Part shown: positions 2,084-56,785 of the stretch, piece by piece
How the letters are laid out: every line of letters begins with the position of its first letter
How positions within the stretch are numbered: the first letter of the stretch is position 1
Source of the DNA: Promethearchaeota archaeon
Lineage (GTDB): Archaea; Asgardarchaeota; Lokiarchaeia; Sigyniarchaeales; SOKP01
NCBI GenBank assembly: GCA_016840085.1
Contig: JAEOTA010000088.1
Coordinates: 64,001-128,000 of the forward strand
Length of the DNA: 64,000 bases
Direction of reading: 5' to 3'
Notes under the pieces: generated by a model
The model's input: the letters and a program-made list of their open reading frames with translations, nothing else
Database searches by the model: none
What the model was told of the DNA's origin: nothing
Translations under genes and position numbers: made by a program

Positions 2084-5000
2084 ATGTCAGAATTAAGAGA
2101 GGAGTTATTAGCTGGGGGAATTAATAAAAAGAGAATAATTGGACTTGTGCTCGTTGCTGCTATATTAATTTCCATATTTACCTTTTCAGTAGTGGCTGTT
2201 AGTCTATTGTTTGGTACCCAACGAACGAAACCTAATAAAGAAAAAGCTGAAACCGATCCTGAAGATGCGATATTAGTAATACCTCCCCTTCCGCTTGACT
2301 TTTTTGAACAATTATTGGAATATTTCCAGAATGATCCAGAAGCATTACAACAAATCATTGATTCTTTAAGTGATATGTTTGATGGGGACATTGATAATTT
2401 TGATTTAAGTGATTATTCAGAAGCTCTTCTTCTACTTGGAGCATTAGCGGGGGGTGCAGCAGCTGAACAAGAAGTGTTCAGATTTTATAATACTACTGAT
2501 CCTTTTTATACCGATATTAATAGTAATAAATTAACAGGCGTTTTATGGAGAATGGAATGTTTTGATCAATTCACTGGTGATGAATGGCAGTCAACAGCGA
2601 GTAAAGGATTTTATGATTTTTACCCTTATAGTGATTATTATTCTAAATATTCCTATTTAGATTTATTTAGGATGAAGATACCGTTATCCCCAACTCCAGG
2701 AACGGCAAATTCAATGGTAATTCCTGCACTATTTCCAATTCCATTCATAATGGAAAATAGTCTATTTGCCCCCAATTTAATCCCTGAATCGACAATCTTG
2801 TATAGAGATGATTTTAATTGTACGACTGTCGACCTTGACTTTACAAGTGATGAATCCGTTAATATGACATATGAAACATTTGGATTAGATTTACCCTCTA
2901 ATAATGATATTAATAATAGTGCGATTCATTCATCTTATACTCCAAATGTCATAAAAGATTTATTTTTACAATTACCACCTTCCATCAATGAATATCTTAA
3001 CTCACATCCTCTATTTAAATCTCATTATGATATTTTAGACACAAAAATAGAGGATAATGATAATGCTTTTGAGGTAGCCAACAAAATAAGAAATTATCTT
3101 CAAACCAACTTTGAGGTTGGGTATGATGCTTTAATGAACGATCCTCAAGAAGATGGAGAAGATATCGTAGATTGGTTCTTGGAACATGAAGAGGGATTAT
3201 GGGCTGAATGGGCTTCCACTTATTGTGCTTTTACAAGAGCCTTTAATGTGCCAAGTCGCTTTGTGGATGGATTTAGAACTGATTTTTTAGGAGAAGTTGA
3301 TGAAATTTATGATGCCGATGAAGGCAGAAATTCTGTCTTGATAAAATATAAACACTTATACAATTGGGCCGAAGTTTTTATTCCTACAGATGTATCAGGG
3401 AATGGTCAATGGGTCCAAATGGATACTATTTTTGATAATTTTGGAGGAGGTCCTATTGAACCTCCAATAAGTCTTTTCAATATAGATATAATCTCAAATT
3501 TTACAGCCGGTTATCGACCTCAAGTAGCTGAATTAACTGCTACTTTGAGTTCTCCAACAGGAGGATCTGTTGAGAATAAAACAATTAATTTTTATGATCA
3601 TACTTCAGAAGTAGCTATTGGTAGCGCTTTAACAAATCAATATGGCAATGCGTCAATTCTAGTTGATATTGATGATTCTCAAGTTGTTGGTCCTCATTTT
3701 ATTAGTGCTTCATATCAACTATCAACTAATTTTACTTATTTTGTAGTTTACGGTGATATTGATGTGTCTCTTACAAGTGTAAATCCAACAATGATTAATC
3801 GCTCAATTAGTAATACTACCCGTATTCAGGGATTTGTTAATGATCCTATAGCTAATCAGAGAGTGATAAATGCTACCGTTGAATTCGTTTTATTAGAAAA
3901 AATCTCACAGAATATAATGCCCTGGCCTTTTGATATTACTTATACCAATACAGATGATAATGGTGATTTCGATGAATATGTGAATGTAAACTCTTGGATT
4001 CCTAAGGGATTTTACGAAATTCGGGTTGATTTTAATGGCTCTTGGGGTGGTTGGCCCGTAGCTTTCGGTATTATGAATGATTCAAGCAATAGAATAGATT
4101 TTAATATAACCGAAGAACCTACTTTTAATGTATGGTTTTATATTAACAACTTTGAAGCAGATTATTATGAGAATCCTCGTGTTTCGAGGTATTCAACACT
4201 TAAATTAAAAGCTCGAATACTTAATGAAACAGGAGATCCGGTCCCCGGCGAATTAGTTCAATTTTATGACCATTCTCTTGATAAACCTATAGGTAGTAAT
4301 ACTACAGATCTAAATGGAATTACAACTTATGATTATGATGTTGATAGTAATACTGCTGGCCCTAATTTATTATATGCGAAATTAGGAAAAGTAAGGAATT
4401 ATTCCTATTTCATTCTTGATGCCCCGATTAACATAAATCTTGATATGTGGCCTCTAAATCGGGAGATTAATAAATCTGGTACAATTGATAGAACCTTTTT
4501 TATTCATGGATTTCTAAATGATGCTGTAAATTCTCAGCCAATCAAAAATGGTGAAATATCAATTCATATGTTCGATACTTCTACTTCTACTGAAATATTT
4601 AATGGGCTAATTTTAGAAAGTGGATCTTATCAATCTGATGTGAATGGAGAGATATATGCTGTATTTAGCATTGCTACTTTTGTTAATATTGGAAATTATA
4701 CTTTAGAAGTATGGTTCAATGGAACATTTTATACCCCGCCTCCGAAACCATATGCGTTCTATTTATCTTATGTTAGTAACTTTTCAGTTGCTGTTAATTC
4801 TGATTATGAGTTAAAAGTATTTGATCCTGATCTTGTTATTATTATTTTTAAGATTGAGGGAAATCATAGATCACTATTTTATGATTATTTTAATCCTCCA
4901 GCAACATACAAACGAGGAGAAAATGCAACCTTTGATGTAAGGATAAATCAGAGTGGAAGTTATGCTCCAGCGGGCTCAATCGTGCGTCTTAGGGATGTAT

Positions 5001-24043: not shown

Positions 24044-24547
24044 TTATTCTTGTTTAGGCAGTTTTTCGGACAATTTAGTTGCTTTTAGAATCTTCTTTAC
24101 ATCATCTACATCAGGAGTCATTATTTCTGGTAAACTCAACTGTGTACGTCTCCTTTTTATGGCAGGTTGCATTGGTATTGCTTTACCATGTTCTAAAATA
24201 GTAGTAGCTTGGCCAGTATAATATGTTGGAGCTTCTCCCCTTTCCACACTCATATTCTTTAAGATAATAAAGATTTCCGTTAATTCAACTTTTTGGGGAC
24301 AAACTTCATCGCATGTATCGCACATTGTACAACCCCAAATATTGAAACTATTTTCAGCACCAAATATTTTTTCTTTAAGTCCTAATAGAGCATCTAGAAT
24401 CAAACGCCTTGGGTTATACCTACCTTCTGTAACTTGTGCGACTGGACACGCACCACTACAAGTAGCACATTGATAACAATATGCTAATGTAGTGCCAATT
24501 TCATTACCAAGAATTTGGTTTCTAAAATCAAAATCTATAGTTGCCAT
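24044..24547 (-). CDS. hdrC: Heterodisulfide reductase subunit C-like 2[4Fe-4S] protein
   Basis: CYQCATCSGACP, YNPRR, IWGCTMCDTCDEVCPQ. Confidence 0.85.
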   Translation of the reverse strand: MATIDFDFRNQILGNEIGTTLAYCYQCATCSGACPVAQVTEGRYNPRRLILDALLGLKEKIFGAENSFNIWGCTMCDTCDEVCPQKVELTEIFIILKNMSVERGEAPTYYTGQATTILEHGKAIPMQPAIKRRRTQLSLPEIMTPDVDDVKKILKATKLSEKLPKQE

Positions 24548-24788
24548 TTGAATTGATCAGTTTATCTTAATATTATGTAATATAACTTATAGTCGGTTTT
24601 AAAATTAATTCTTTTAAAATTTAGTTTTTTAACCAGAAAAATATCTATTAGTTTTTTATGTTTTGACAATCATTATTTAAGTCTTCTTTTTAAATTGTAA
24701 TTGAAATTAATATAAGTAATTAAATATTTAATCTTATAACTATATAACAAAATTATTTTAATGGCAAATATTATTAAATTGAGATAGA

Positions 24789-25145
24789 ATGACAAATATC
24801 GAAGAATTAAAAGAGTATGGTCTTGAAATCACAGAAGATATGAAAAAAGGAAAGGTTATCATCGATATTTATACAAATTGGTGTGGACCCTGCCAATTTT
24901 TAAGCCCTCTCTTAGAAAAATTGGAACGTGAAGGATTGATTAAATTGTTGAAAGAGGACCTAGATCAAAATAGACCCCTTGGTGAAAGATTTGGAATTAC
25001 AGCCATTCCAACTACTCTACTTTTCAATAATGGTGAACTCTTAAATCATCCTATAGAAGTTCAGGGACAAATACTAGTAAAAAACGGACTAATGGTTGGA
25101 GCAGCAGGAGAACAAATAATTCGTGAAATCATTGAAAAAATGTAA
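24789..25145 (+). CDS. trxA: Thioredoxin
   Basis: WCGPC, FGITAIPT. Confidence 0.9.
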   Translation: MTNIEELKEYGLEITEDMKKGKVIIDIYTNWCGPCQFLSPLLEKLEREGLIKLLKEDLDQNRPLGERFGITAIPTTLLFNNGELLNHPIEVQGQILVKNGLMVGAAGEQIIREIIEKM

Positions 25146-25388
25146 TTGGATTAAAATTAAATTGTTTTCACAGGAAATTTTCATTTTTCCTTTTTTATAT
25201 AAACATTTACTAAAACAGAATTAGTATTCGAATAATATAGATTAAAAATTTCAATGATCGAGTAAGATAATATGTTTTCTTAATAATCAATTACTATGTG
25301 TTAATAAGAATTCATACAAATAATCTATTATTCAAATTATAAATTTTTTATTTAATGAAAGTTTTTCAATATTTAATTTGATAAAAGA

Positions 25389-25916
25389 TTGGAAAATAGC
25401 AATATGAATTATTCAAGAAAAGAATTAATACAAACAGACGCAACTATGAATCAAATGAGAAATGCAATTTATGGCTTAGCTCGTTTTATGGAGAAAAACG
25501 GAGTCACTGATTTGAAGAATAAATTGAGGAAGATGGGACAAAATATAGCTAGAACTTATATTCAATACTGGAGACCAACAAATTTAATTAATACTTCTAA
25601 TTTAAAAGATGTTATTACAACAATTTATCAAAAAATATTGAATAGTAGTGTGTCAATTGAAATAAATCAAGTAGAAAGTTTAATAAAAGTTCAAGATTAT
25701 AAATGTGCTTTGTGCAAATATCATTATGATGATATAGAGATAGCAGGTTGTGAAATAATATTAGGTATGGTTTCTGAAATCATTTCTCTTATAAGTCAAG
25801 AATCTCATGATCCTTCTTCTATATTTTTAGAGCCCTATGATGTAACAGAATCTCGAGCATATGGAAATAAAACATGTATTCAATTATATAAATATAAAAT
25901 AGGAGAGAAAGGTTAG
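25389..25916 (+). CDS. V4R / Bet3(TRAPP)-like domain protein
   Basis: LRKMGQNIA helix; CALC...GCEIILGMV...ESRAYGNKTC V4R-type ligand pattern. Confidence 0.65.
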   Translation: MENSNMNYSRKELIQTDATMNQMRNAIYGLARFMEKNGVTDLKNKLRKMGQNIARTYIQYWRPTNLINTSNLKDVITTIYQKILNSSVSIEINQVESLIKVQDYKCALCKYHYDDIEIAGCEIILGMVSEIISLISQESHDPSSIFLEPYDVTESRAYGNKTCIQLYKYKIGEKG

Positions 25917-25918
25917 AA

Positions 25919-27391
25919 ATGGGGGCTTTTCAGTGGTTAATGAAAAAGATAACGAAAGTATTTGGTCGTTCTACAAATGCTCTATTTTATACCTTACTTT
26001 ATAGAGAAATTCTTAAGGAAATTAATGAGGTCACTAAGAAAGAAGAAGACAGCCTTATAATTCTTAGAGAACTTGGAAAGAGAGCAGCTATTGAGTCTTG
26101 TGAGCGACATTCAAGTATTTTTAAATTTATGCCAGGATCTCCTAAAAAAGTTTTAGATTATTTCGAGATTCTTTGGGTTGTCGTGTTTGGAAGAGATTTA
26201 GATGATTATTCATATGAAGAAATTCCTAAAGTAGACTCAAAATATAATGATTATGTTTTAAAAATCAGTAAATGTCCTATCTGCGCGGGCTATGGGAAAG
26301 ATATTGAAGATTCATTTGATTTTAATAAATTGAAAAGTAAAGAAACAGAAGGGCTAGCTTGTGGACTTTGCGGAATGTTAGAAAGTGTTGCTAATTTTAT
26401 CTTAAAAATAAAAAGGAATAATTATAGAATTCAAATAGTTGAGCAAGAATGTATAGCTAAAGGAGGAAATTCCTTACAATTTATCTGCAAAATACATGAT
26501 ATAAATGAATGGAAACAACTTATGGCTTCAAGAGTTGAAGAAAAGGCTATATTAAGTGTGCATTTTGAAGAAGATTTAGAAGAAGAGGAGATTATTCAAG
26601 AAACAAAGATTGATGTTATAGATAAAATCCAAGATGTTATCTCAATCGATAAACTAGAGGAATATCTTGATGAACCATTAGAAAGTATAAAAAATAGAGT
26701 TTCTGATATTATTAGAGATAAATTAAATATGGAGCCTAAAAATTTCTTCGACTACTTCCGTAATTATGAGGATGATATGATAAAAATAATTGGATATTTA
26801 GGCACACATCTTTTAAATGAATATGGAGGATTATTGGAGAAATCTCTTAAAAATGAGTGGTTTGCAAAAGTTTTAGGATATATTTTTAAACAACTTAAAG
26901 AAATGACGCTATTATTTATTCCATTAGACGTTATACGTGATTATAATGAATTATTGGTCAGTTTTCTTGATGATTTAGCTCCCTCAGAAATGGTTGATAA
27001 TGTAAAACAATTTACAAGCAAAGATACAATTAATTATCTCTTTGAGGGTGCTCAAATGGCTCTTGAAAATTTAGGGATTGATTTTTCCGAACTTAAGGAT
27101 AATGTATGGGAGGAATTAAAAGCGGAACGTGAGAACGGCTTAATTTCTTCAGAAACATCAACAATTGAAAGGACACGTGACAGAGTACCACAAATAATCA
27201 ATATAATGCAACAAATTTTAATGATAATGAATGATATCCTCACTTTGCCAATTAGAGTCTTAATATCAGAAAGCCATTACGGATTAAAAACAGCAATTAA
27301 TTCTGTGGTCTCGGAAGAAGAAGGGTTATATGGCTCAATACGTGGGAAACTTGATAACATATTTGACCAGATTCAAGAAATAAGAAAATAA
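25919..27391 (+). CDS. V4R / Bet3-like domain protein with long acidic helical C-terminus
   Basis: LRELGKRAA, CPIC, CGLCGMLE, EQECIAKGG; last 111 codons are duplicated at 31958..32293. Confidence 0.7.
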   Translation: MGAFQWLMKKITKVFGRSTNALFYTLLYREILKEINEVTKKEEDSLIILRELGKRAAIESCERHSSIFKFMPGSPKKVLDYFEILWVVVFGRDLDDYSYEEIPKVDSKYNDYVLKISKCPICAGYGKDIEDSFDFNKLKSKETEGLACGLCGMLESVANFILKIKRNNYRIQIVEQECIAKGGNSLQFICKIHDINEWKQLMASRVEEKAILSVHFEEDLEEEEIIQETKIDVIDKIQDVISIDKLEEYLDEPLESIKNRVSDIIRDKLNMEPKNFFDYFRNYEDDMIKIIGYLGTHLLNEYGGLLEKSLKNEWFAKVLGYIFKQLKEMTLLFIPLDVIRDYNELLVSFLDDLAPSEMVDNVKQFTSKDTINYLFEGAQMALENLGIDFSELKDNVWEELKAERENGLISSETSTIERTRDRVPQIINIMQQILMIMNDILTLPIRVLISESHYGLKTAINSVVSEEEGLYGSIRGKLDNIFDQIQEIRK

Positions 27392-27392
27392 T
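27055..27392 (+). repeat. Left copy of imperfect ~338-bp direct repeat (3' end of the V4R gene)
   Basis: AATGGCTCTTGAAAA...GAAATAAGAAAATAAT; colinear and gap-free with 31957..32294. Confidence 0.93.
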
Positions 27393-27432
27393 GCGTAGAG
27401 ATTCAAATAAAACTCTTTCTTACGTTAATAAT

Positions 27433-28902
27433 TCAATCTTCATCTGGACCCCAGGCTTCTTCTATTTCTTCTGGCGTCATACCATTAAACCAAGTCATAA
27501 AATCTCGTTTAAAATTAGAAGGATAATAAGGCTTTTTGAAAATAAAAGTATATATATTTTTAAGTCTCATACCTTTTTTCCTCATCTTTATAGTTATATC
27601 TCTTCGATGTTTAAATAAGATCTCATTTCTTCCACCAAAATTATGTTTATACACGCTTACTATTGTATTAAAAGGTAATCCACTAATCTTTGCAATTTCA
27701 TAATTTGGAACTTCCTTGGTTACCCATTCCTCCCATTGGGATTTAGATATCCCACAGTATTTCTCTTCAAGATTTTCAAGTATATTTCTTATTTTATTAA
27801 TATCTAATATCTTTAATTTGAGCCAAAATTTAAAATCTAAATTCTCTTCTTTTTTCCACCATTTAAAAAGCCACCCCTCCTTAGAATGAGGAGATGAAAA
27901 AGTATTATAAATTTTTTTATATGAAAATCCTTCATAAACTAATGCTTCAACTACTGGTTTTAAAAATAATTTTTGAGCCTTTACCCAATCTTTAAATTCC
28001 TCAATGATTCTTCTACGTAATGTGTTCTCTGCAATATTCTCATTCATAAAATCATTCTTATATAATTTATTTAAAATTTTCCAAATTTTCTTCTGAGTAT
28101 ATCCTAATGCAATCATGCCAACTATGTCATAAAATGGAAGAGGGATATAGGGGAGTCCCCCTTGACCTCCTCCAAGCTCATTAAGTTCTAAGGTGGTATC
28201 ATATTTGTGTATGAGTTTAATCTCTTGCTTTATTGCTGTCTCTAATTTTTTATGACATACCAAATCTACTACATCAAAATAATTTTCTTCAATTTTATAT
28301 GATAATTTTTCCAACATTCTACTCTGGGAATATACATCCTCAATTTGGAGAAAATCATAAATTTCATTAATTATATAACCCATATCTTCTAGTGCCAAAA
28401 TAATTGACCTGTTAAGTTTTGTTGGTATTTCACGTCGATATCCCCTTTGATAATCAATAAATTGTTCAATAGCTTCTTGAATATGAGTCTTAAATCTAAT
28501 TTTTTCAGTTGAGTGTGTATAACCAAAATATTTCTTCTTTTTGAACCAATTATTAGGAAAACTATTTTTACACTTAATCAAATATACCATAGCTTCATAA
28601 TTTCTGTATCTTTTTACGAATCCATAAAATTTATCCTTAACAGTTATATAATCTTTACCTTCATAAATATCAACTAACTCTTGTTGAATAGTTAATCGTT
28701 TTTGCACTGCTCTGTATAAAGGAAGTTTACCCGATCTAATACAATATTCTAACACTATATCAGCATATTCTAATATCTTTAAATAAATGGTTTCATCCTT
28801 ACTTTCCTTTAAAATCTTATCTCGCATATAATTATAACCATTTAAACTCACATCATGTCTAGTTATTAGAATTCCATTTTTTTCTTTTGGTTTTTGAACC
28901 AC
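27433..28902 (-). CDS. GIY-YIG-like endonuclease with C-terminal HTH-like repeats
   Basis: MVYLIKC...KYFGYT...RFKTH, then EIKLIHKYDT...LNELGGG; repeated helical units (MIALGYTQKKIW, LVYEGFSYKKIY, MRKKGMRLKNIY). Confidence 0.65.
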   Translation of the reverse strand: MVQKPKEKNGILITRHDVSLNGYNYMRDKILKESKDETIYLKILEYADIVLEYCIRSGKLPLYRAVQKRLTIQQELVDIYEGKDYITVKDKFYGFVKRYRNYEAMVYLIKCKNSFPNNWFKKKKYFGYTHSTEKIRFKTHIQEAIEQFIDYQRGYRREIPTKLNRSIILALEDMGYIINEIYDFLQIEDVYSQSRMLEKLSYKIEENYFDVVDLVCHKKLETAIKQEIKLIHKYDTTLELNELGGGQGGLPYIPLPFYDIVGMIALGYTQKKIWKILNKLYKNDFMNENIAENTLRRRIIEEFKDWVKAQKLFLKPVVEALVYEGFSYKKIYNTFSSPHSKEGWLFKWWKKEENLDFKFWLKLKILDINKIRNILENLEEKYCGISKSQWEEWVTKEVPNYEIAKISGLPFNTIVSVYKHNFGGRNEILFKHRRDITIKMRKKGMRLKNIYTFIFKKPYYPSNFKRDFMTWFNGMTPEEIEEAWGPDED

Positions 28903-29358
28903 TAAAACACCGTTTTTATTTTGATTTTTATAATAAAAGGCTTTTTCTGACTATGATTCAAGAAATGACAATCACAAAGAGACCCTATCCTTACTTTTAT
29001 AATAGAATTTCTATCTATCTTTTTTAACCACATTATTAATTTTTTTATTATGAATGATGATTATTTTTACTTGCAAAATAAAAGTCCTTTTTAATAATTT
29101 ATTTAATATAATGATAAATTTCACATATTTAAATCTAGTCAATTTACATCAATTATTCCATCCAACCGATTTTGTCTTTATAAATAACTTAAAAATTTCT
29201 TAAGGAATTTTTCCTTTATAAATATTTCGTAAAATCTATAAATATACATACCTCATAAATACCTTATACGAGTATAAAGTATCAATCTAAAATAGCTTTT
29301 AGTAATATAAGATTTTTATTCCAAGATTAAAAATAATACTTTCTCGTACACGTTAATT

Positions 29359-30189
29359 TCATATTTCAAAATTTTTCATAAAATTTTCTAATGAAATAAA
29401 ACTAATCTTGTCATAATGATTTTCCAAAACTAGTTGTTTCCAATTGATACTATCTAAAATTACTGCCAAATCTGTGATATCGGAAATTGCCGGATCCATA
29501 TCCATATATTCGTTGTCTAAATTTTTTACAATTATTTTTTTGAATATGTCATTGATGATATATAAAAAATCTAAAAATGTACTAACTTCGAATTCTTTAA
29601 AAACTGAATTTAATTTATCCCATTGGTCATAAATATAAAAAACCTGTGAAGTTAATAAACATGCTTTTATTAAACCAAAAATCCCATATCCTGCTCTAAA
29701 TGTCGTTTGGAATGAATGGAAATTAAGTTTAATATGTTCTTCTGGAATTGACTTGTCAATTTTTTCATGAACTAAATAATTTGCTATAAAATCAAAAAAA
29801 ATCTCATTTAAATTAACTTTGAAATACTGATTATTGATTCTACATTTAACATATTCATCAAACGGTAATATATAAGAATGTAATTTATTGAATGTCTCAC
29901 ATGAAATTGAATGCCCATATTCATGACGGGCAACCTGAATAAAATAATTTCTGTATGATTCGGGATTATCTTTAAATATTTCCCTATGTGCGGGATTTGA
30001 TAAGTAATAATCGATGGGAATGATTTTAAAACTAATATTGATATGTTGTTGAGACCAATTACAATCCACTAATCCTTTATCATTTATCTTGTCTAATGAA
30101 TAATTCAATTGACGCTTATCCTCAAATCTTTGCATTAATGATTCAAATTCCTTTTTAAAATATTCAATGATATCGTCTTGATTAACCAT
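29359..30189 (-). CDS. HExxH zinc metallopeptidase-like protein
   Basis: VARHEYGHS plus downstream NEIFFDFIAN (candidate third ligand E); overlaps upstream DUF4238 gene by 8 bp. Confidence 0.6.
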   Translation of the reverse strand: MVNQDDIIEYFKKEFESLMQRFEDKRQLNYSLDKINDKGLVDCNWSQQHINISFKIIPIDYYLSNPAHREIFKDNPESYRNYFIQVARHEYGHSISCETFNKLHSYILPFDEYVKCRINNQYFKVNLNEIFFDFIANYLVHEKIDKSIPEEHIKLNFHSFQTTFRAGYGIFGLIKACLLTSQVFYIYDQWDKLNSVFKEFEVSTFLDFLYIINDIFKKIIVKNLDNEYMDMDPAISDITDLAVILDSINWKQLVLENHYDKISFISLENFMKNFEI

Positions 30190-31111
30190 GTATAATTCTA
30201 AACCTGTTTAGGTCTTTTAAATCCTTATATTCTTTAACATATTTCCGTGCGAATTTAAAATCATTTGTTCTCGTAAAAACGGTTCTATGTGCCATTGCGA
30301 TGATTTGCGTGTTAATAAAATCCAATTCACGTTGAATTACCCTTTTTGACATTCCAAAATGTCTATATTCTGATATTTCCTTATCATAAAAAACCAAACA
30401 TAATCTCGGTGTTAAAGGAAAAAAAATTTCCACACCCTTCGCTGTGTATATTTGTCTACCAAAACCTCTAATTTTCAATTCTTTATTTTCAGGGGGTATA
30501 TATACGCGCACGGGATGGTCAGATGTGTAAAACTCTCTTTTTAAATCGTTTTTTAATAATACGGAACCTAACTCTGCCATCTCGAATATTGTTTCAATCG
30601 GATAATGAATGGTACCATCTTCCATTTCCACGGGATTAATCATGACATTTAATTGCCCTCTCGCCGCACCTCCTTCTAATAATTTCTTTTTATATTCTTC
30701 GGAAAAGTTTTCAAATGGAGGAAATCCTTGTTCTTCTTCAAAATTCTTGTAAACCAACTCATATATTTGGGCATTGCGGGTACGGGCGCTACGGGTACGT
30801 TCATTCTGTATAATTATATAATGGTACATAATGTATTTATCATATAATGTTAAGTGTTTGATTGATTGGTCTTTTATGATTCTATGATATACCGTGGCGT
30901 GTAATCCTTCCAAATGCGAAAAGTAATTCTCAAACTCGGGTGGATCATCATTGTCATAAAAATATCTTTCCATTGCTACTTGTGTGATGTTTGAATTATA
31001 CGATTTATCCAATTCCTTGTTATAACATTGAATTGAATATTCCCCCGACGCTTTTTGTATAGCGAAATTTTTCAAATAAAATTTCGGTACATAATGCTGC
31101 TTTTTTTTCAT
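30182..31111 (-). CDS. DUF4238 domain protein
   Basis: QHYVPKFYLKNF, RT motif, FYTSDHPV, FFPLTPRLCL. Confidence 0.88.
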   Translation of the reverse strand: MKKKQHYVPKFYLKNFAIQKASGEYSIQCYNKELDKSYNSNITQVAMERYFYDNDDPPEFENYFSHLEGLHATVYHRIIKDQSIKHLTLYDKYIMYHYIIIQNERTRSARTRNAQIYELVYKNFEEEQGFPPFENFSEEYKKKLLEGGAARGQLNVMINPVEMEDGTIHYPIETIFEMAELGSVLLKNDLKREFYTSDHPVRVYIPPENKELKIRGFGRQIYTAKGVEIFFPLTPRLCLVFYDKEISEYRHFGMSKRVIQRELDFINTQIIAMAHRTVFTRTNDFKFARKYVKEYKDLKDLNRFRIIHG

Positions 31112-31117
31112 ATTATT

Positions 31118-31798
31118 TCATTCATCTTGGTTGCTCAAAAATTGTCTTACAAATTCAAAATCATTCGTTTTTGAAAAAATGAAATCTTTAGCTACCTGAA
31201 TCATGGCTTTGTTAGCTTCATTAACAAACCATTTGCTTGCTTGTATTTTTTGACTTGGATACAATTGCATCCAATCTTCGCTATTGTTCATTATTAAAAA
31301 TAGATCTGGTGCTAATGGCATTGCAACTTTAATGCCTTTTTCATTTGATTTATCGAATTGTGAAATGGGATGGTCGCTCGTGTAAAATATCTTTTCTGTG
31401 TTGTTTTTCAAAATATAATAATTGAAATTCATTAATTGTTCCATCGTTAATTCCCGTGCTCTGCGGGTGCGTGCATGGGTAAGATAAACGAATTCCATGA
31501 TTTTTCTTTTCTCTGGTTCCATTAATGCATACATGGGGATTTCTTCAATAAATCTATAAATGGTGGAATGATAACCATCTATAATGCTCAATGCATCTTC
31601 AAAAATGTTATGCCTGTCGTAAAACCAATTTTCCTTGCAAATATTATTGATATTTGACTCAAATACATCCCCTGTCTTTTTATTATAACACCATACATAA
31701 TGCTCCCCGTTTCTTTCTATTGAAAATTGTTTTAAATAAAACCTAGGTATATAATGTTGACCTTTCCTTTTTTGTCGGCTATTTCCTATTGGATGCAT
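31118..31798 (-). CDS. DUF4238 domain protein (shorter paralogue)
   Basis: QHYIPRFYLKQF, FYTSDHPI, MPLAPDL, SKTNDFEF. Confidence 0.85.
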   Translation of the reverse strand: MHPIGNSRQKRKGQHYIPRFYLKQFSIERNGEHYVWCYNKKTGDVFESNINNICKENWFYDRHNIFEDALSIIDGYHSTIYRFIEEIPMYALMEPEKRKIMEFVYLTHARTRRARELTMEQLMNFNYYILKNNTEKIFYTSDHPISQFDKSNEKGIKVAMPLAPDLFLIMNNSEDWMQLYPSQKIQASKWFVNEANKAMIQVAKDFIFSKTNDFEFVRQFLSNQDE

Positions 31799-31956
31799 GT
31801 AATAATACCGTTTTAATCCATAATGTTTACTTCATTATTACACACCCATATTCGTTTCAACCTATTATATTTTACTATTAATCCGGGGATGAGTTTTCAT
31901 TCTCATTAAATGATGGTTGATTTTAATTCGAATTAGACTTCAATTAGTAATTTTAT

Positions 31957-32294
31957 AATGGCTCTTGAAAACCTAGGGATTGATTTCTCTGAATTAAAGG
32001 AAAATGTATGGGAAGAATTAAAGAAAGAACGTGAAAATGGATTAATAAATGCAGAAGCTTCAGCAGTTGATAAAACACGTGAAAAAATTCCACAAATTAT
32101 TAACATTATACAGCAAGTTGTAATGGTTATTAATGATATACTCACTTTACCAATTAGGGTATTAATCTCGGAAAGTCATTACGGACTGAAAACAGCCATA
32201 AATTCTGTTATTTCAGAAGAAGAGGGATTATACGGTTCTATTCGAGAACGCTTTGACAATTTATTTGATCAAATTGAAGAAATAAGAAAATAAT
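31957..32294 (+). repeat. Right copy of imperfect ~338-bp direct repeat
   Basis: Same length and frame as 27055..27392; first 15 nt identical. Confidence 0.93.
31958..32293 (+). pseudogene. Displaced 3' fragment (111 aa, still open) of the V4R gene 25919..27391
   Basis: 88/111 identical residues to the C-terminus of 25919..27391; no indels or stops; T7 tract at 32327..32333. Confidence 0.8.
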
Positions 32295-32373
32295 AAACAT
32301 AAAATTGGTTAACATCACTAGAACTCTTTTTTTATTTTTAAATTTATAAACTTTTGATATTATTTTAAACCTG

Positions 32374-33801
32374 TTAATAGTTTTTTTCTTTTTCAGCATA
32401 GTAAATATCAAAAATCCAATCTACAATATATTGAAAGAAAAATCGCTCTCGCAATACATCATAATGAGATTTTCCCCTTAAACTTGTTAATTTAGCAATA
32501 TCTTCTGATTTTATTTTATCCTTAGCAACTAAATCCATACGCGTTATAAATTGATCTTTAAGCTTGATTTTTCTAAAAATAATAGAAATTGATTTAGAAA
32601 TCTTTTTTATTATCTCTTTTAATTCCGATTTGTAATCCTGTTGAAATTCATCAATATCGTTAATGAAATTTATTATTTCTTTTAAAATTGAATCTCTATC
32701 GAAATAATTAATTAGTTCATTTGGATTAAGAATCCCTGATAAATAATCAATAATTTTTTCTCTAATGTCTATTTTAATATTAATATTTATTAACTCTTTT
32801 TCTAATTTACCTAAAAATTGTCTTTTAAGAAATTGCTTGAATTTTATTATAATCGCTTCATTTTCTTTCTGATCTGAGCAAATTTCAATGATCTCTCCTT
32901 TTGGAGTGGAATAAGTGAATCCTAAACCCTGTGGCCCTAAACCTCCAAGTAGAACCATAGATAAACTGTAAAACTTATAATTATCTCTCGCCAAAATACT
33001 ACCCAAGTTTTTCAATATGTTTTCTGGTGAAATAAAATGCTTTTTAATTTCACTGTATTCACGATTTTCCTCAACACCATAATAAAATGTTCTATAAATT
33101 ACATTAAATTCCATAAATCTCTTATTTTTATCATTTAAATCTATTTTTTCTTTTATTTCTTCATTTTTGAAAAAATTATAATACTTTTTAAAAATATCAA
33201 TAAATCTCCTTATGGAACTTAAATATCTTACACTTAAACCATATATAGTATACTGGTTGAAAAAATCATTCTTAATATAGTGCATTAGACCATCTCTATC
33301 TTGGAAATATGAATTCGATCTTTTCATGAAATGTTCGTAAATATCTCGTGGAAATACTAAATACACATAAGAAATAAATGAATCTGACACTTTACCATAC
33401 AAATCATTTAAGTTAGCTAAAAATAACTTATCTTTTTTGATTTTTATTATTGAATTTTTTTCTTCTTCAGTTAATTCTTTTTCCAATAAACTATATTCAT
33501 TACAAAATCTTAAAATATCAATTTGATCTCCCAATGCTGAAGTTTGATACTCAGTAGAAATCCTATCGATAAGATTCATAAGTACTTTAGAAATAAATTC
33601 AAATCGTTGATTTATTTTTTTTACATCAATAAAAATATCAAAATCAATCGATGCATTAAATAACTTCTTGAAGTTTTTTAATTGTCCATGCTTAAGGCAT
33701 TTAGCTAATTCCTCATAATAAGCTATTTCAAATAATTGCTTATCTTTGATATTTGAAGTTTTTAATTTGAATTCCTCAAAAAATTGATTTGAATGCATCA
33801 T
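32374..33801 (-). CDS. Hypothetical protein
   Basis: 475-aa ORF with a compact Gly-rich core SMVLLGGLGPQGLGFTYSTPKGEIIEICSD. Confidence 0.75.
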   Translation of the reverse strand: MMHSNQFFEEFKLKTSNIKDKQLFEIAYYEELAKCLKHGQLKNFKKLFNASIDFDIFIDVKKINQRFEFISKVLMNLIDRISTEYQTSALGDQIDILRFCNEYSLLEKELTEEEKNSIIKIKKDKLFLANLNDLYGKVSDSFISYVYLVFPRDIYEHFMKRSNSYFQDRDGLMHYIKNDFFNQYTIYGLSVRYLSSIRRFIDIFKKYYNFFKNEEIKEKIDLNDKNKRFMEFNVIYRTFYYGVEENREYSEIKKHFISPENILKNLGSILARDNYKFYSLSMVLLGGLGPQGLGFTYSTPKGEIIEICSDQKENEAIIIKFKQFLKRQFLGKLEKELININIKIDIREKIIDYLSGILNPNELINYFDRDSILKEIINFINDIDEFQQDYKSELKEIIKKISKSISIIFRKIKLKDQFITRMDLVAKDKIKSEDIAKLTSLRGKSHYDVLRERFFFQYIVDWIFDIYYAEKEKNY

Positions 33802-33871
33802 AAAAATAATAAGATAAAAGATTTAATAAAAATACATTCATTGCTAATGTTATTGCTATGATTAAAACAAA

Positions 33872-34243
33872 TTAATCTAAAAGTTCAGCAATTTTCTTAG
33901 AAACACTTTGAATGTTTAAGAAAACCATCCCCAGTGAAGCATCGCTTCGAGCTAACGTGCATAAAATTGCATTTTCTCCTGCTTTTGACAAAATAATTAT
34001 CCCATCAACGCCTTCTATAAGAATTCGTTTTAAATCTCCACGAGCAAGCTCCTCTACAGCACGTTCTGATACACTTAGAATCGCTGCACTCATAGCACTG
34101 ACAATCCCATCGTTTACATCTCTAGCCAACGCCGAACAAATCGGAAGGCCTTGCACACTCACTATTGCACTTCCTTGGATATCGGGATTAACTGCTTCCA
34201 TTTGGCGTAATAAGTCAGTGAGTTCAGCAATGTTTTCACTCAA
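33872..34243 (-). CDS. Roadblock/LC7 (MglB/LAMTOR-like) protein
   Basis: IQGSAIVSVQGLPICS, VSAMSAAILSVSERAVEEL, LGMVFL. Confidence 0.93.
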   Translation of the reverse strand: MSENIAELTDLLRQMEAVNPDIQGSAIVSVQGLPICSALARDVNDGIVSAMSAAILSVSERAVEELARGDLKRILIEGVDGIIILSKAGENAILCTLARSDASLGMVFLNIQSVSKKIAELLD

Positions 34244-34331
34244 CGATTAATCAACTTGAATAAATAGTGCTTAATAATCTAATAAGATAATTATATTATA
34301 AAATTATTTTTTTTTTGATCTTATTTTAATG

Positions 34332-34353
34332 TTAACTTTATTATAAAAGTTAA
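34332..34353. promoter_or_regulatory. Inverted repeat in the roadblock/map divergent promoter
   Basis: TTAACTTT-ATTATA-AAAGTTAA; AT-rich context makes a chance occurrence possible. Confidence 0.3.
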
Positions 34354-34400
34354 TTCATATTTAAAAAATATTTTTATCAAACACCACATTAGTAATTGTA

Positions 34401-35378
34401 ATGACTGAGAATCAAAAATTAAAAAGCGATACGCAAGAAGAAAAAAGTAAGGAAGAATTGGAAAAAGAAGAAGAAGAAAAAATTAAAGTAAACTCACTAA
34501 GAAAAGCTGGAAAAATTGCTCAGCAGGTAAAAGAGTTTATCAAGCCAAAAATAAAAGTAGGAGCAAAAGCAATAGACTTAATTACTATTACTGAGGCAAA
34601 AATTGAAGAATTAGGTGGATTTTCTGCTTTTCCTGTAAATTTAAGTATAAATAATATTGCTGCGCATTACACCTCTCCAATAAAAGATGATGGTTTGACT
34701 ATTAACGATGATGATATTGTTAAAATCGATTTAGGAGTTCATGTTGAAGGTTATATTGTTGATACTGCTTTTACAGTTAAATTCAATGAAGATGAATCAC
34801 TTGAAAATATAATTCAAGCTACTGAAGTAGCTCTTGATGCTGCAAAAATGATGGTCAAACCTAAATTAAATACAAAAGAAATAGGAAAAAAAATTGAAAG
34901 TATTGTAAGGGGATTTAAGTATAATCCAATAAAAGAACTTGGTGGTCACCAAATTGAGAGATGGACTGTTCACGGAAAAAAAGCATTACCAGAATTAGGA
35001 TCTCAAGGTGGTGATATTATAGAGGAAGGAGAAATATTTGCTATAGAGATATTTGCAAGTACAGGTGAAGGATCAGTTCATAATACTCCATATTCATATA
35101 TATACGAATTAAATCCATATGCTGGAAGAGTTCCTTTACGTAGGAAGGTATCTAAACAACTTTTAGGTTTTATCAATAAGAATTATAAGACTTTACCTTT
35201 TGCCGAAAGATGGTTAGCGAAAGAATTTAGATTAGGCGTAGCATTTGGACTTCAAGAACTTGTACAACAAGGAAAATTACAAGCCCATTATGTTCTGGCA
35301 GAAAAAAAAGGTGAATATGTTGCTCAATCAGAACAAACTATACTAATAACTGAGGACGGATATGAACAATTAACTTAA
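34401..35378 (+). CDS. map: Methionine aminopeptidase type II
   Basis: AFPVNLS, AAHY, KIDLGVHVEGYIVDTAFT, GHQI, AIEIFASTG, TLPFAERW. Confidence 0.95.
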   Translation: MTENQKLKSDTQEEKSKEELEKEEEEKIKVNSLRKAGKIAQQVKEFIKPKIKVGAKAIDLITITEAKIEELGGFSAFPVNLSINNIAAHYTSPIKDDGLTINDDDIVKIDLGVHVEGYIVDTAFTVKFNEDESLENIIQATEVALDAAKMMVKPKLNTKEIGKKIESIVRGFKYNPIKELGGHQIERWTVHGKKALPELGSQGGDIIEEGEIFAIEIFASTGEGSVHNTPYSYIYELNPYAGRVPLRRKVSKQLLGFINKNYKTLPFAERWLAKEFRLGVAFGLQELVQQGKLQAHYVLAEKKGEYVAQSEQTILITEDGYEQLT

Positions 35379-54221: not shown

Positions 54222-55484
54222 ATGGAAATAGTAGAAAATGAGAAAGAAGCCGTAGCTACTGCTAAAATTGAATCAAAACCTTGGAAAAAATTACTCGAAG
54301 TTAAGAATTTAAAAACATATTTTTATACTGAAGAAGGTATAGTTAAAGCAGTTGATGGAGTAAATTTTGACATTTATGAGGATGAAGTCCTTGGTCTTGT
54401 TGGTGAAACAGGATGCGGTAAATCTGTTACAGCACTTTCAATTTTACAACTTGTAAGAGCCCCAGGTAAAATCATTGATGGAATAACCATCTTTAAAGGA
54501 GAGAATCTTTTAGAATTAAAGGAAAATGAGATGCGTGAGCGTCGTGGTAAGGACATTACTATGATCTTTCAAGATCCTTTAAATTCTCTCAATCCTGTAT
54601 TTACAGTCGGTAAACAAATTTCAGAGGTCTTCTTATTACATCAAGAAACAGATCTTAAAAGAGGACTTGATAATCGTTTATTAGAAAGAGCAAAAAAAAA
54701 AGAAGAAAAAAATAATTTAAAAGCATTACTTGAGGATGAAGAAAGCGGCTTATCAGAGGAAGAGAAGAACGAAATTAAAGCCAAAATTAAAGAGCTTAAA
54801 AAAGAAACAGCTCATATCCCCAAATTAGAAGAGATAAAATGGGAGTGGGCTGAAAAAATAATAACTGAAGTAGGGATTCCAGATGCAAGTGGAATATTAA
54901 AACGATATCCTCATGAATTAAGTGGCGGTATGAGACAACGTGTCATGATAGCTATGGCACTTTCATGTAATCCAGCACTTCTGATTGCAGATGAGCCTAC
55001 TACTGCTTTAGATGTTACAATTCAGGCTCAAATTCTTGATTTGATGAAAGGTTTGAAAGAAAGATTTAAAACTTCAATCCTTATTATAACTCACGACTTG
55101 GGAATTATAGCTGAATTGTGCGATAGAGTTGCTGTAATGTATAGTGGCAATATCGTTGAATATGCAACCGCAGAACATTTATTCCAAAATCCACGTCATC
55201 CATATACAATAGGATTGATTGGAGCGATTCCAAGTATAGAAAAAAAGGATCAAAAATTACAAACTATTCGAGGAATGGTCCCAAATCTCATTTATCCCCC
55301 ATCAGGTTGTAGATTCCATCCCAGATGTGATCATAGACTTGAAATTTGTGATAAAATCAAGCCACAATTAACTGAAATTGCTGATAGATATTTTGTGGCT
55401 TGCCATCTTTTTGATCCAAAGTATAAAGATTCACCTAAATATGTGTGGACTGAAGAAGAAAAAGAAGTTTCTTTGAGAGTATAA
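54222..55484 (+). CDS. dppD: Peptide ABC ATPase DppD/OppD
   Basis: GETGCGKS, YPHELSGGMRQR, IADEPT, HPYT, GCRFHPRC. Confidence 0.93.
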   Translation: MEIVENEKEAVATAKIESKPWKKLLEVKNLKTYFYTEEGIVKAVDGVNFDIYEDEVLGLVGETGCGKSVTALSILQLVRAPGKIIDGITIFKGENLLELKENEMRERRGKDITMIFQDPLNSLNPVFTVGKQISEVFLLHQETDLKRGLDNRLLERAKKKEEKNNLKALLEDEESGLSEEEKNEIKAKIKELKKETAHIPKLEEIKWEWAEKIITEVGIPDASGILKRYPHELSGGMRQRVMIAMALSCNPALLIADEPTTALDVTIQAQILDLMKGLKERFKTSILIITHDLGIIAELCDRVAVMYSGNIVEYATAEHLFQNPRHPYTIGLIGAIPSIEKKDQKLQTIRGMVPNLIYPPSGCRFHPRCDHRLEICDKIKPQLTEIADRYFVACHLFDPKYKDSPKYVWTEEEKEVSLRV

Positions 55485-55516
55485 AATTGAAAATTCAATA
55501 TTAATTACCAAAAAAA

Positions 55517-56785
55517 TTGTCTAAAATGACTGTTCCAGAATTAAAGACTAAAAAAACTGAATTAGGAAAAACAAGAAAGTATAATAATAAACGAGATGCG
55601 ATAATAACCGTAAAGAATCTTAAGACGTATTATCCTATATATGGAGGAATGTTCAAGCGTAAAGTAGGGGAAGTCAAAGCTGTTGATGGTGTCACATTTA
55701 ATTTTTATAGAAATGAAACTTTAGGATTAGTTGGAGAGAGTGGTTGCGGAAAGACAACAATTGGGAATACAATTTTAAGATTAGTACCAAATACCGATGG
55801 AGAGATTTATTATGAAGACCTGAGAATTGATCCAAGAAAAGTACAAGGATTACTTGAACGATGGATAAGTAGATATAAGACTTTAGTACTCTATGCAATT
55901 CCAGGAATCTATGAAAAAAATAAAGAAAAATTTGAAAAGTGGATGTCTAGATTACCCTCATTTCTCTATAAACGATATAAAAGGCTTAAAATTGATATTA
56001 AAATACTTCAGAGAGATTTTCTTGTAGGTAAATTTATCCGTAAAAGAATTCAAATGGTTTTTCAAGATCCAGATGCATCCTTAAATCCTAGGTGGAAAGT
56101 AGTAAATATTATCGGTGAACCCCTCAAAATATTGGAAGGAATTACTAAAAAAAGAAAAATTCGAGCAAGGGTTTTAGAACTCCTTCAAACAGTATCTATG
56201 AAGCCTGAACACTTGGATCGATATCCCCATGAATTTTCGGGGGGACAAAAGCAGAGAATAGTGATTGCTAGGGCTTTGGCATGTAATCCTGAAGTAATTA
56301 TCTTAGATGAGCCCACTTCTGCTCTTGATGTGTCCGTGCAGGCTCAAATATTGAATTTATTAAAAGAACTTCAAAAAGAATTTGATCTTTCATTTCTCTT
56401 TATTACTCATGATCTTAGTGTTGTACAACATATTGCTGACAGAATCGCAGTAATGTATTTAGGCAAATTTGTCGAAACTGGAGCGGTAGATGAGGTATTT
56501 TATAATCCGTCTCATCCATATACTAAAGCATTATTGTCTGCACGACCTACATTCGATCCTACTTCAAAAACAAACAGAATTATTTTAGAAGGCGATGTTC
56601 CAAGCCCTATTAATCCACCAGAAGGATGTCCGTTTCATCCAAGATGTCCTGAAAAAGACAAACATATCGGCTGTGGTGTTGAAAATCCAAGGAAAATTCA
56701 TTTAGGTGGAGACCATTATATAGTATGTCTACCATTTAAGGATGAGAAAAAATCCTATGAAGGCATGGAATATATATCAGATTAA
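55517..56785 (+). CDS. dppF: Peptide ABC ATPase DppF/OppF
   Basis: GESGCGKT, YPHEFSGGQKQR, LDEPTSALDVSVQAQ, GCPFHPRC. Confidence 0.93.
   Translation: MSKMTVPELKTKKTELGKTRKYNNKRDAIITVKNLKTYYPIYGGMFKRKVGEVKAVDGVTFNFYRNETLGLVGESGCGKTTIGNTILRLVPNTDGEIYYEDLRIDPRKVQGLLERWISRYKTLVLYAIPGIYEKNKEKFEKWMSRLPSFLYKRYKRLKIDIKILQRDFLVGKFIRKRIQMVFQDPDASLNPRWKVVNIIGEPLKILEGITKKRKIRARVLELLQTVSMKPEHLDRYPHEFSGGQKQRIVIARALACNPEVIILDEPTSALDVSVQAQILNLLKELQKEFDLSFLFITHDLSVVQHIADRIAVMYLGKFVETGAVDEVFYNPSHPYTKALLSARPTFDPTSKTNRIILEGDVPSPINPPEGCPFHPRCPEKDKHIGCGVENPRKIHLGGDHYIVCLPFKDEKKSYEGMEYISD

Follow-up and report, generated by a model that had tools for sequence, protein, structure and literature searches.

In fungal mitochondria, mORF gene hybrids were reported for atp6 of Allomyces macrogynus and for atp6, atp9, cox2, and nad3 of Glomus (PMC3630166). 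In phage T4, intronless homing was described for the Seg endonucleases SegA, SegE, SegF, and SegG (PMC2988022), and the gene remnants in phage homing endonuclease gene islands (HEG-islands) were proposed as recombination substrates for later homing (PMC10055350; Barth, Dunham, Seed). Here, these systems are compared with a locus in a stretch of 64,000 nucleotides (the window) from a marine-sediment Asgard archaeon of the Lokiarchaeia (Promethearchaeota archaeon, contig JAEOTA010000088.1, positions 64,001 to 128,000), whose genome is labelled G000. The locus holds a duplicated 3' gene end, with a nuclease gene and cargo genes between the two copies, and it is probable in our assessment that a free-standing GIY-YIG homing endonuclease moves as a module that includes a 3' end, recoded but in frame, of the gene it targets. 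Throughout, G-numbers denote genomes, C-numbers contigs, and L-numbers loci, and gene nucleotides (nt) are counted in the target gene.

The mORF hybrids share with this locus the foreign in-frame C-terminal end, the adjoining endonuclease gene, and the native end, stranded downstream, that groups with close relatives. There, however, the nuclease is co-transcribed with the target and the element is compact and cargo-free, whereas here the nuclease lies on the opposite strand, convergent with the target gene and followed by kilobases of unrelated cargo; the Asgard element also resides on an archaeal chromosome and forms serial arrays, with nuclease stubs marking older rounds. By its opposite strand, cargo, and chromosomal location it is outside the mORF class in the strict sense. 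T4 Seg homing is similar in the free-standing GIY-YIG gene near a conserved target, the distant cut (putative here), and the co-conversion patch at the site, but Seg swaps the allele without leaving a duplicate, whereas here the recipient end is retained and DNA builds up. HEG-islands likewise carry nuclease-linked cargo by recombinational repair; two nucleases flank essential phage genes there, in contrast to one nuclease, a repeated host gene end, and accessory arrays on a cell chromosome here. Growth at a single site is also known from the tandem accretion of integrative and conjugative, integrative and mobilizable, and cis-mobilizable elements (ICE, IME, CIME), from integrons, and from the displacement arrays of Rhs and contact-dependent inhibition (CDI) toxin C-termini, in which new units enter one site, older ones are pushed downstream, and stranded gene ends accumulate. 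In contrast to these, no recombinase or att arms were found here, the replaced end keeps the same protein with no swap of a toxin tip, and the constant gene is the nuclease. No such archaeal element was found in the papers searched, a set outside which most subscription papers lay. Relative to the known systems, the archaeal chromosome, the multi-kb cargo, the serial arrays, and a mapped putative site appear to be new.

Double ancestry of the duplicated gene end

The target gene (25919-27391, plus strand) encodes 490 aa, is intact but mosaic, and occurs only once in most of the 135 genomes of the family. Its last 336 bp (27056-27391, left copy or copy 1) pair without gaps with 31958-32293 (right copy or copy 2), with 261/336 nt and 88/111 aa identical (blastn E 2e-73), which bears out the repeat of equal length and frame reported in the initial annotation. 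Only 8 mismatches fall in the initial 60 nt, and the codon differences comprise 39 synonymous and 23 non-synonymous changes (dN 0.11, dS 0.7-1.9). The abrupt start of similarity at an identical 15-bp stretch (27055/31957) was also found as described. The interpretation of this stretch as a core or site did not stand: it is a conserved part of the gene and the commonest allele among empty genomes, neither an att core nor a cut site. Four minus-strand open reading frames (ORFs) lie between the copies; two encode proteins of 489 and 276 aa, and the other two encode DUF4238 proteins.

The 3' end of the target gene was detected in 51 of the 54 genomes of the genus, and approximately 39 of these 51 alleles are empty, that is, they directly abut the gene for a conserved 475-aa protein that forms the right flank in the window (32374-33801, minus strand). 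Within the genus, the nuclease occupies the site only in G000, G048, G083, and, as a stub, G045. The tree of the 5' part places G000 with G048 and the empty allele G024 (support 100/100). The tree of the 3' part joins copy 2 to G024 (99/94, or 98/90 when restricted to the duplicated stretch) and copy 1 to nuclease-linked alleles from other hosts (98/90). Copy 2 is 86.5% identical to G024, matching the 87.6% of the 5' part of the gene, and copy 1 only 79%; the replacement 3' end (26908-27391, plus strand, which contains the left copy 27055-27391) is 89-94% identical to nuclease-linked alleles in distant hosts. In the approximately unbiased (AU) test, on a tree set that omits mL096, mL099, and two distant remnants, a clade of copy 1 with copy 2 and a clade of copy 1 with G024 were both rejected (p-AU 0.002). 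The conflict is repeated in G083, where the 5' part is sister to G031 and the stranded copy on contig C43 is 97-99% G031-like. Judged from sequence comparison, the left copy is foreign and the right copy (31957-32293, plus strand, gene nt 1137-1473, with an eroded 5' side) is the displaced gene end of the host. Since the same conflict occurs in G000 and G083, the polarity proposed in the initial annotation is correct; the empty alleles that it called for exist, and the 3' end of the closest one groups with copy 2. The gene of G000 is host-type to ~nt 774, donor-type at 820-843 (8/8 informative sites), host-type at 849-909, and donor-type from ~990; its foreign tract starts well upstream of 27055.

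Two similar gene ends would also result if a local duplication had diverged or if two strains had been assembled into a chimera, and the contamination of G000 (7.6%) is compatible with the latter. Against both stand the rejected clade of the two copies and the recurrence of the layout in many independent assemblies. In contig-level data from which runs with a small share were left out, zero-difference unitigs from two sequencing runs cross both junctions (X1, 24520-27303 and 27274-34452; X3, 27142-32669), which also speaks against the strain-chimeric misassembly that the initial annotation had considered. These runs probably belong to the source study, so that a joining error is excluded although the samples are not independent. 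The duplication is real and not an assembly error, and this pair of explanations is largely refuted, with a nearly negligible probability.

A GIY-YIG nuclease and its putative target site

The 489-aa ORF (27433-28902, minus strand), whose stop lies 41 bp from that of the target gene, is by fold and motifs a GIY-YIG nuclease, as the initial annotation had supposed. For the window protein alone, Pfam, a PDB sequence search, and Foldseek with the whole model returned nothing; the identification comes from the domain-level structure search and the distant homologues. Among 48,161 chains searched with the domain model, the top three were all GIY-YIG enzymes: I-TevI as the best fold match (Z 7.1, rmsd 2.7, 88 of 92 residues aligned), then PD-T4-3 (Z 5.3) and EndoII (Z 4.9). 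Pfam PF01541 matches 17 of 24 family members (best E 2e-8). The predicted catalytic domain (~aa 103-243) carries a helical insertion and is followed by C-terminal helix-turn-helix repeats that resemble AraC-type pairs. Residues Y107, Y125, G127, R136, H140, E227, and N241 are intact in the window nuclease; the first six are invariant across 24 homologues, and distant members read GIIY and YIG. The dN/dS ratio of the nuclease is ~0.3 against two homologues.

The nuclease is free-standing: it adjoins a conserved target gene and lies in no intron or intein. Every close homologue (56-91%) for which flanking DNA is available is placed tail-to-tail with the same gene, 9-42 bp from its stop, in hosts that are 67-96% alike and are named Promethearchaeota or Lokiarchaeota by their sources. 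The host of L091 is only 76-78% alike at the amino acid level in tpi and the upstream gene, whereas its nuclease is 91% identical, which indicates that the module moved horizontally. A metagenome search for related loci with the nuclease as query gave no match. In locus L102 (2315-3967) the nuclease looks chimeric: its N-terminal part is of the G083 type, and the last ~70 residues and the spacer are like those of G000/L091. Homologues of 795-990 aa, extended at the N-terminus by a long acidic or Zn-ribbon region, occur at L096:1911-4427, L097:3257-5644, L199, L200, and L203. The nuclease leader (28903-29300) is partly common to other nuclease-bearing loci, the similarity ending at differing points. 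In the L098 leader (4090-4200), a ~31-bp unit is repeated in tandem about four times, and the L235 junction falls within such a unit. An I-TevI-like operator in the leader was considered and discarded: what looked like a degenerate site in L098 turned out to be a stranded copy, short and decayed, and none was present in 14 other leaders.

It was initially suggested that the nuclease site spans the junction at 27055. This was not upheld, as the left copy differs there from the empty-allele consensus by only 1 nt, the windows rank ~250-256 of 266 for recoding, and no other stranded copy begins at this point. In the sister genome G048 the same stranded end retains only ~32 bp, and 31957 is therefore an end left by erosion. 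The comparison points instead to a target at approximately codon 275 (window ~26740), 315 bp upstream of 27055; the putative site covers codons 274-283 (gene nt 820-849; 26738-26767, plus strand) and is recoded in G000. Nine stranded copies, at six junctions with unrelated upstream DNA, begin at gene nt ~814-826: at nt 822 in L096/L097, 823 in L098 (twice), 825, 823, and 821 in G083, ~817 in L213, and ~826 in L281. Eleven further copies begin downstream (nt 1081-1433; G000 at 1137) and none upstream; the simulated probability of such clustering is 2e-4. In a scan of 266 windows of 30 nt, the strongest departures of nuclease-linked alleles from the empty consensus fell in the windows that begin at nt 829, 826, and 820. 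The motif TTY MGR AAY TA of codons 280-283 is present in 0/12 nuclease-linked alleles, in 42/46 of those without nuclease, and in 8/8 of the stranded copies that were scored. Codon 281 reads AGA, AGG, CGA, or CGG in empty alleles, and CGT (eight), AAA (three), or CAA (one) in the 12 nuclease-linked alleles, including CGT in G000 (26759-26761). The putative cut would be ~690 bp from the nuclease gene.

These data bear on the proposal that the DNA was captured independently of the nuclease, through homology on one side and illegitimate joining on the other, with the nuclease, perhaps a defence or repair enzyme, standing by chance at the stop. Neither the single start point of the stranded copies nor the convergent codon-281 changes confined to nuclease-linked alleles is predicted by such capture, and every readable genome with stranded copies of the target gene also has the nuclease or its stub. 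The intergenic spot is nonetheless permissive: in five genomes an insert of 3.3 kb without nuclease or stranded copy separates the target and downstream genes (among them loci L163, L104, L105, and L106 in G006, G039, G082, and G035, where two genes encode 864-916 and ~145 aa, with a penicillin-amidase-like counterpart in a relative), and a stub of the downstream gene lies on G083 C43. Many distant homologues are also stably placed without duplications. We regard capture of this kind as improbable.

Related nucleases occur in the same layout at three other genes, once mirrored at a 5' end. In G019 (C16, L079:7628-10645), a 27-30% homologue is flanked on one side by a stranded native 5' stub of 62 codons, 94% identical to G015, and on the other by a radical SAM gene with a start of foreign origin, which is 96% identical to G034 and 73% to G015. 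In G086 (C115, L201:168-3767), a convergent homologue separates an HGD-D dehydratase subunit gene from a 73% stranded copy of its last ~165 bp, without cargo. In L149 (123-3214), a 41% homologue and a 173-aa gene separate a gene end from a decayed repeat of its final ~26 codons. A 78-bp exact repeat near the G030 homologue and paralogue repeats near the homologues on G120 C90 and G000 C60 were not counted as gene-end replacements.

Arrays, cargo and the search for a recombinase

The window holds the one-module state with an intact nuclease. At least two stranded copies were found within single contigs of G083, GCA_023705845.1, L281, L098, and G120. G083 has at least eight copies of the gene end over six contigs, with two each on C47, C42, C40, and C43, and exact 127-bp overlaps link C47-C42-C40 through repeats over ~21 kb. 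Several stranded copies in G083, G045, G120, and L281 are followed by nuclease C-terminal stubs (last 25-130 codons). In G120, of another genus, the target-gene end and nuclease stub are doubled on C50 (L195:1483-8657) with 99.7% identity, 5 kb apart, and the intact gene is on a different contig. Stubs of the 3' end of the 475-aa gene were found at L054:3801-4452 (G083 C43) and L123 (G000 C32, 10825-11205); on C43 the stub comes after the final 41 bp of the target gene and is an old right flank remaining within the array.

As the initial annotation had anticipated, the same site carries other cargo elsewhere: comparable layouts with different cargo or none were seen in GCA_023705845.1, L093, L098, L099, L235, L265, and L281, and the modules of L235, G019, and G086 are cargo-free. 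The cargo amounts to 2.4 kb in G000 and more in relatives. In the window it encodes a 276-aa protein without family (29359-30189), a DUF4238 protein (30182-31111; Pfam E 4e-40), and a second, shorter DUF4238 protein (31118-31798; Pfam E 1e-33), all on the minus strand. A DUF4238 protein was reported to protect E. coli against T7 (PMC9122126). PADLOC gave no match for the window cargo; across relatives the cargo includes DUF4238, SIR2-TPR, SMC-like, NACHT-like, RelA/SpoT-TPR, HEAT, subtilase, and B12 radical SAM proteins, with partial PADLOC matches, and is often of anti-virus type. The RelA/SpoT-TPR gene of L051 (843-1335) contains 102-bp tandem TPR repeats, and in L091 the same gene stands directly after the nuclease.

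The fixed start of the stranded copies is also what an ordinary integrative island would give, if its recombinase had been lost or acted in trans, its att site lay close to codon 275, tandem accretion were ICE/CIME-like, and the nuclease were a passenger. Moreover, L096, L097, and L265 have some pre-junction DNA in common, and tyrosine recombinases occur on other contigs of G000, G083, and G045. Yet, in agreement with the initial annotation, no tyrosine or serine recombinase (PF00589, PF00239, PF07508) was found on the window contig or any other island contig searched, although the assemblies are fragmented and a recombinase might act in trans. Neither an integrase-bearing relative at the site nor a conserved att arm with an identical core was found; the six junctions differ upstream, with starts scattered over ~12 bp, and occupied alleles are altered at the site and keep no identical core. 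The nuclease is the only constant gene, cargo-free modules exist, and a fixed right end of the element was sought and not found. A tyrosine recombinase near the arrays, as the IntI of integrons would be, was likewise absent, attC sites not having been searched with a model. An ordinary integrative island is in our estimate quite improbable.

For the remainder of the locus, Rfam gave no match, and a promoter scan gave matches at chance level only. The label of the target gene as a eukaryotic-signature V4R gene survives only as a lead: the protein has no Pfam V4R match, but its N-terminal part is V4R-like by language-model features, the neighbours being V4R/DUF5943 at 0.88-0.90. Elsewhere in the window (54946-56536), two neighbouring ~420-aa paralogues have a 279-bp stretch in common at 67%.

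Proposed mechanism and its implications

In the proposed homing route, the nuclease would cut sensitive alleles at approximately codon 275. The left side would then be repaired from the donor by homologous recombination, so that the immune site, the replacement end, the nuclease, and the following DNA are copied, probably in this order of events; the mosaic ancestry and the recipient 3' end stranded behind the copied DNA can both be read in the sequences. At a first invasion, the right side would be joined without homology. At later invasions, the stranded copy of the donor may serve as the right homology arm, and a new module would enter in front of the existing DNA of the recipient. This step is suggested by the junction between nuclease leader and site, which is the same in L098 and G083 C43 although the two have different hosts and the copy on C43 is of host type; a common junction with host-specific stranded ends is expected if the stranded end acts as an arm. 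Deletions might subsequently take away the larger part of the nuclease gene and the beginning of the stranded copy, the site may revert, and re-invasion would add a further block; stubs and arrays are observed, and the cycle is their likely origin. The outcome would be a cargo array built without a recombinase.

Several points weigh against the homing of such a module. The fold match is moderate (Z only 7.1), and no excision or transfer intermediates were seen in the assembled contigs. The codon-281 motif was picked post hoc among related alleles with only three independent changes (Fisher P 0.002 on 0/3), and the weight therefore rests on three convergent changes and their coincidence with the junctions. 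The immune spelling occurs without nuclease in 4/46 genus alleles (L018, L027, L111, and L113 in G021, G023, G036, and G043) and in the metagenomic alleles L219, L256, and L268; these are possible relics of past homing. Many distant homologues occupy stable positions without a stranded gene end, among them a second family member in G000 (C60, L162:8504-10243; 25%), whose position is conserved in several genomes. As G083 is a metagenome-assembled genome with contigs joined via repeats, its total array length is unsure. The route accounts neither for the first source of cargo nor for the movement of DNA between cells.

With these points considered, we lean slightly towards a recombinase-free, integron-like accretion in Asgard archaea, in which the nuclease, the immune replacement end, and the stranded end as arm would stack accessory and defence-type genes over repeated rounds. 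In the archaeal group closest to eukaryotes, the homing module would offer a testable route by which islands form and grow with neither integrase nor transposase, and it predicts a target sequence and a single-codon immunity for a new GIY-YIG family. It also implies efficient chromosomal DNA exchange between Lokiarchaeia lineages ~20% apart, and it makes a mosaic of a conserved marker-type gene, the 3' half of which is misleading in phylogenies.

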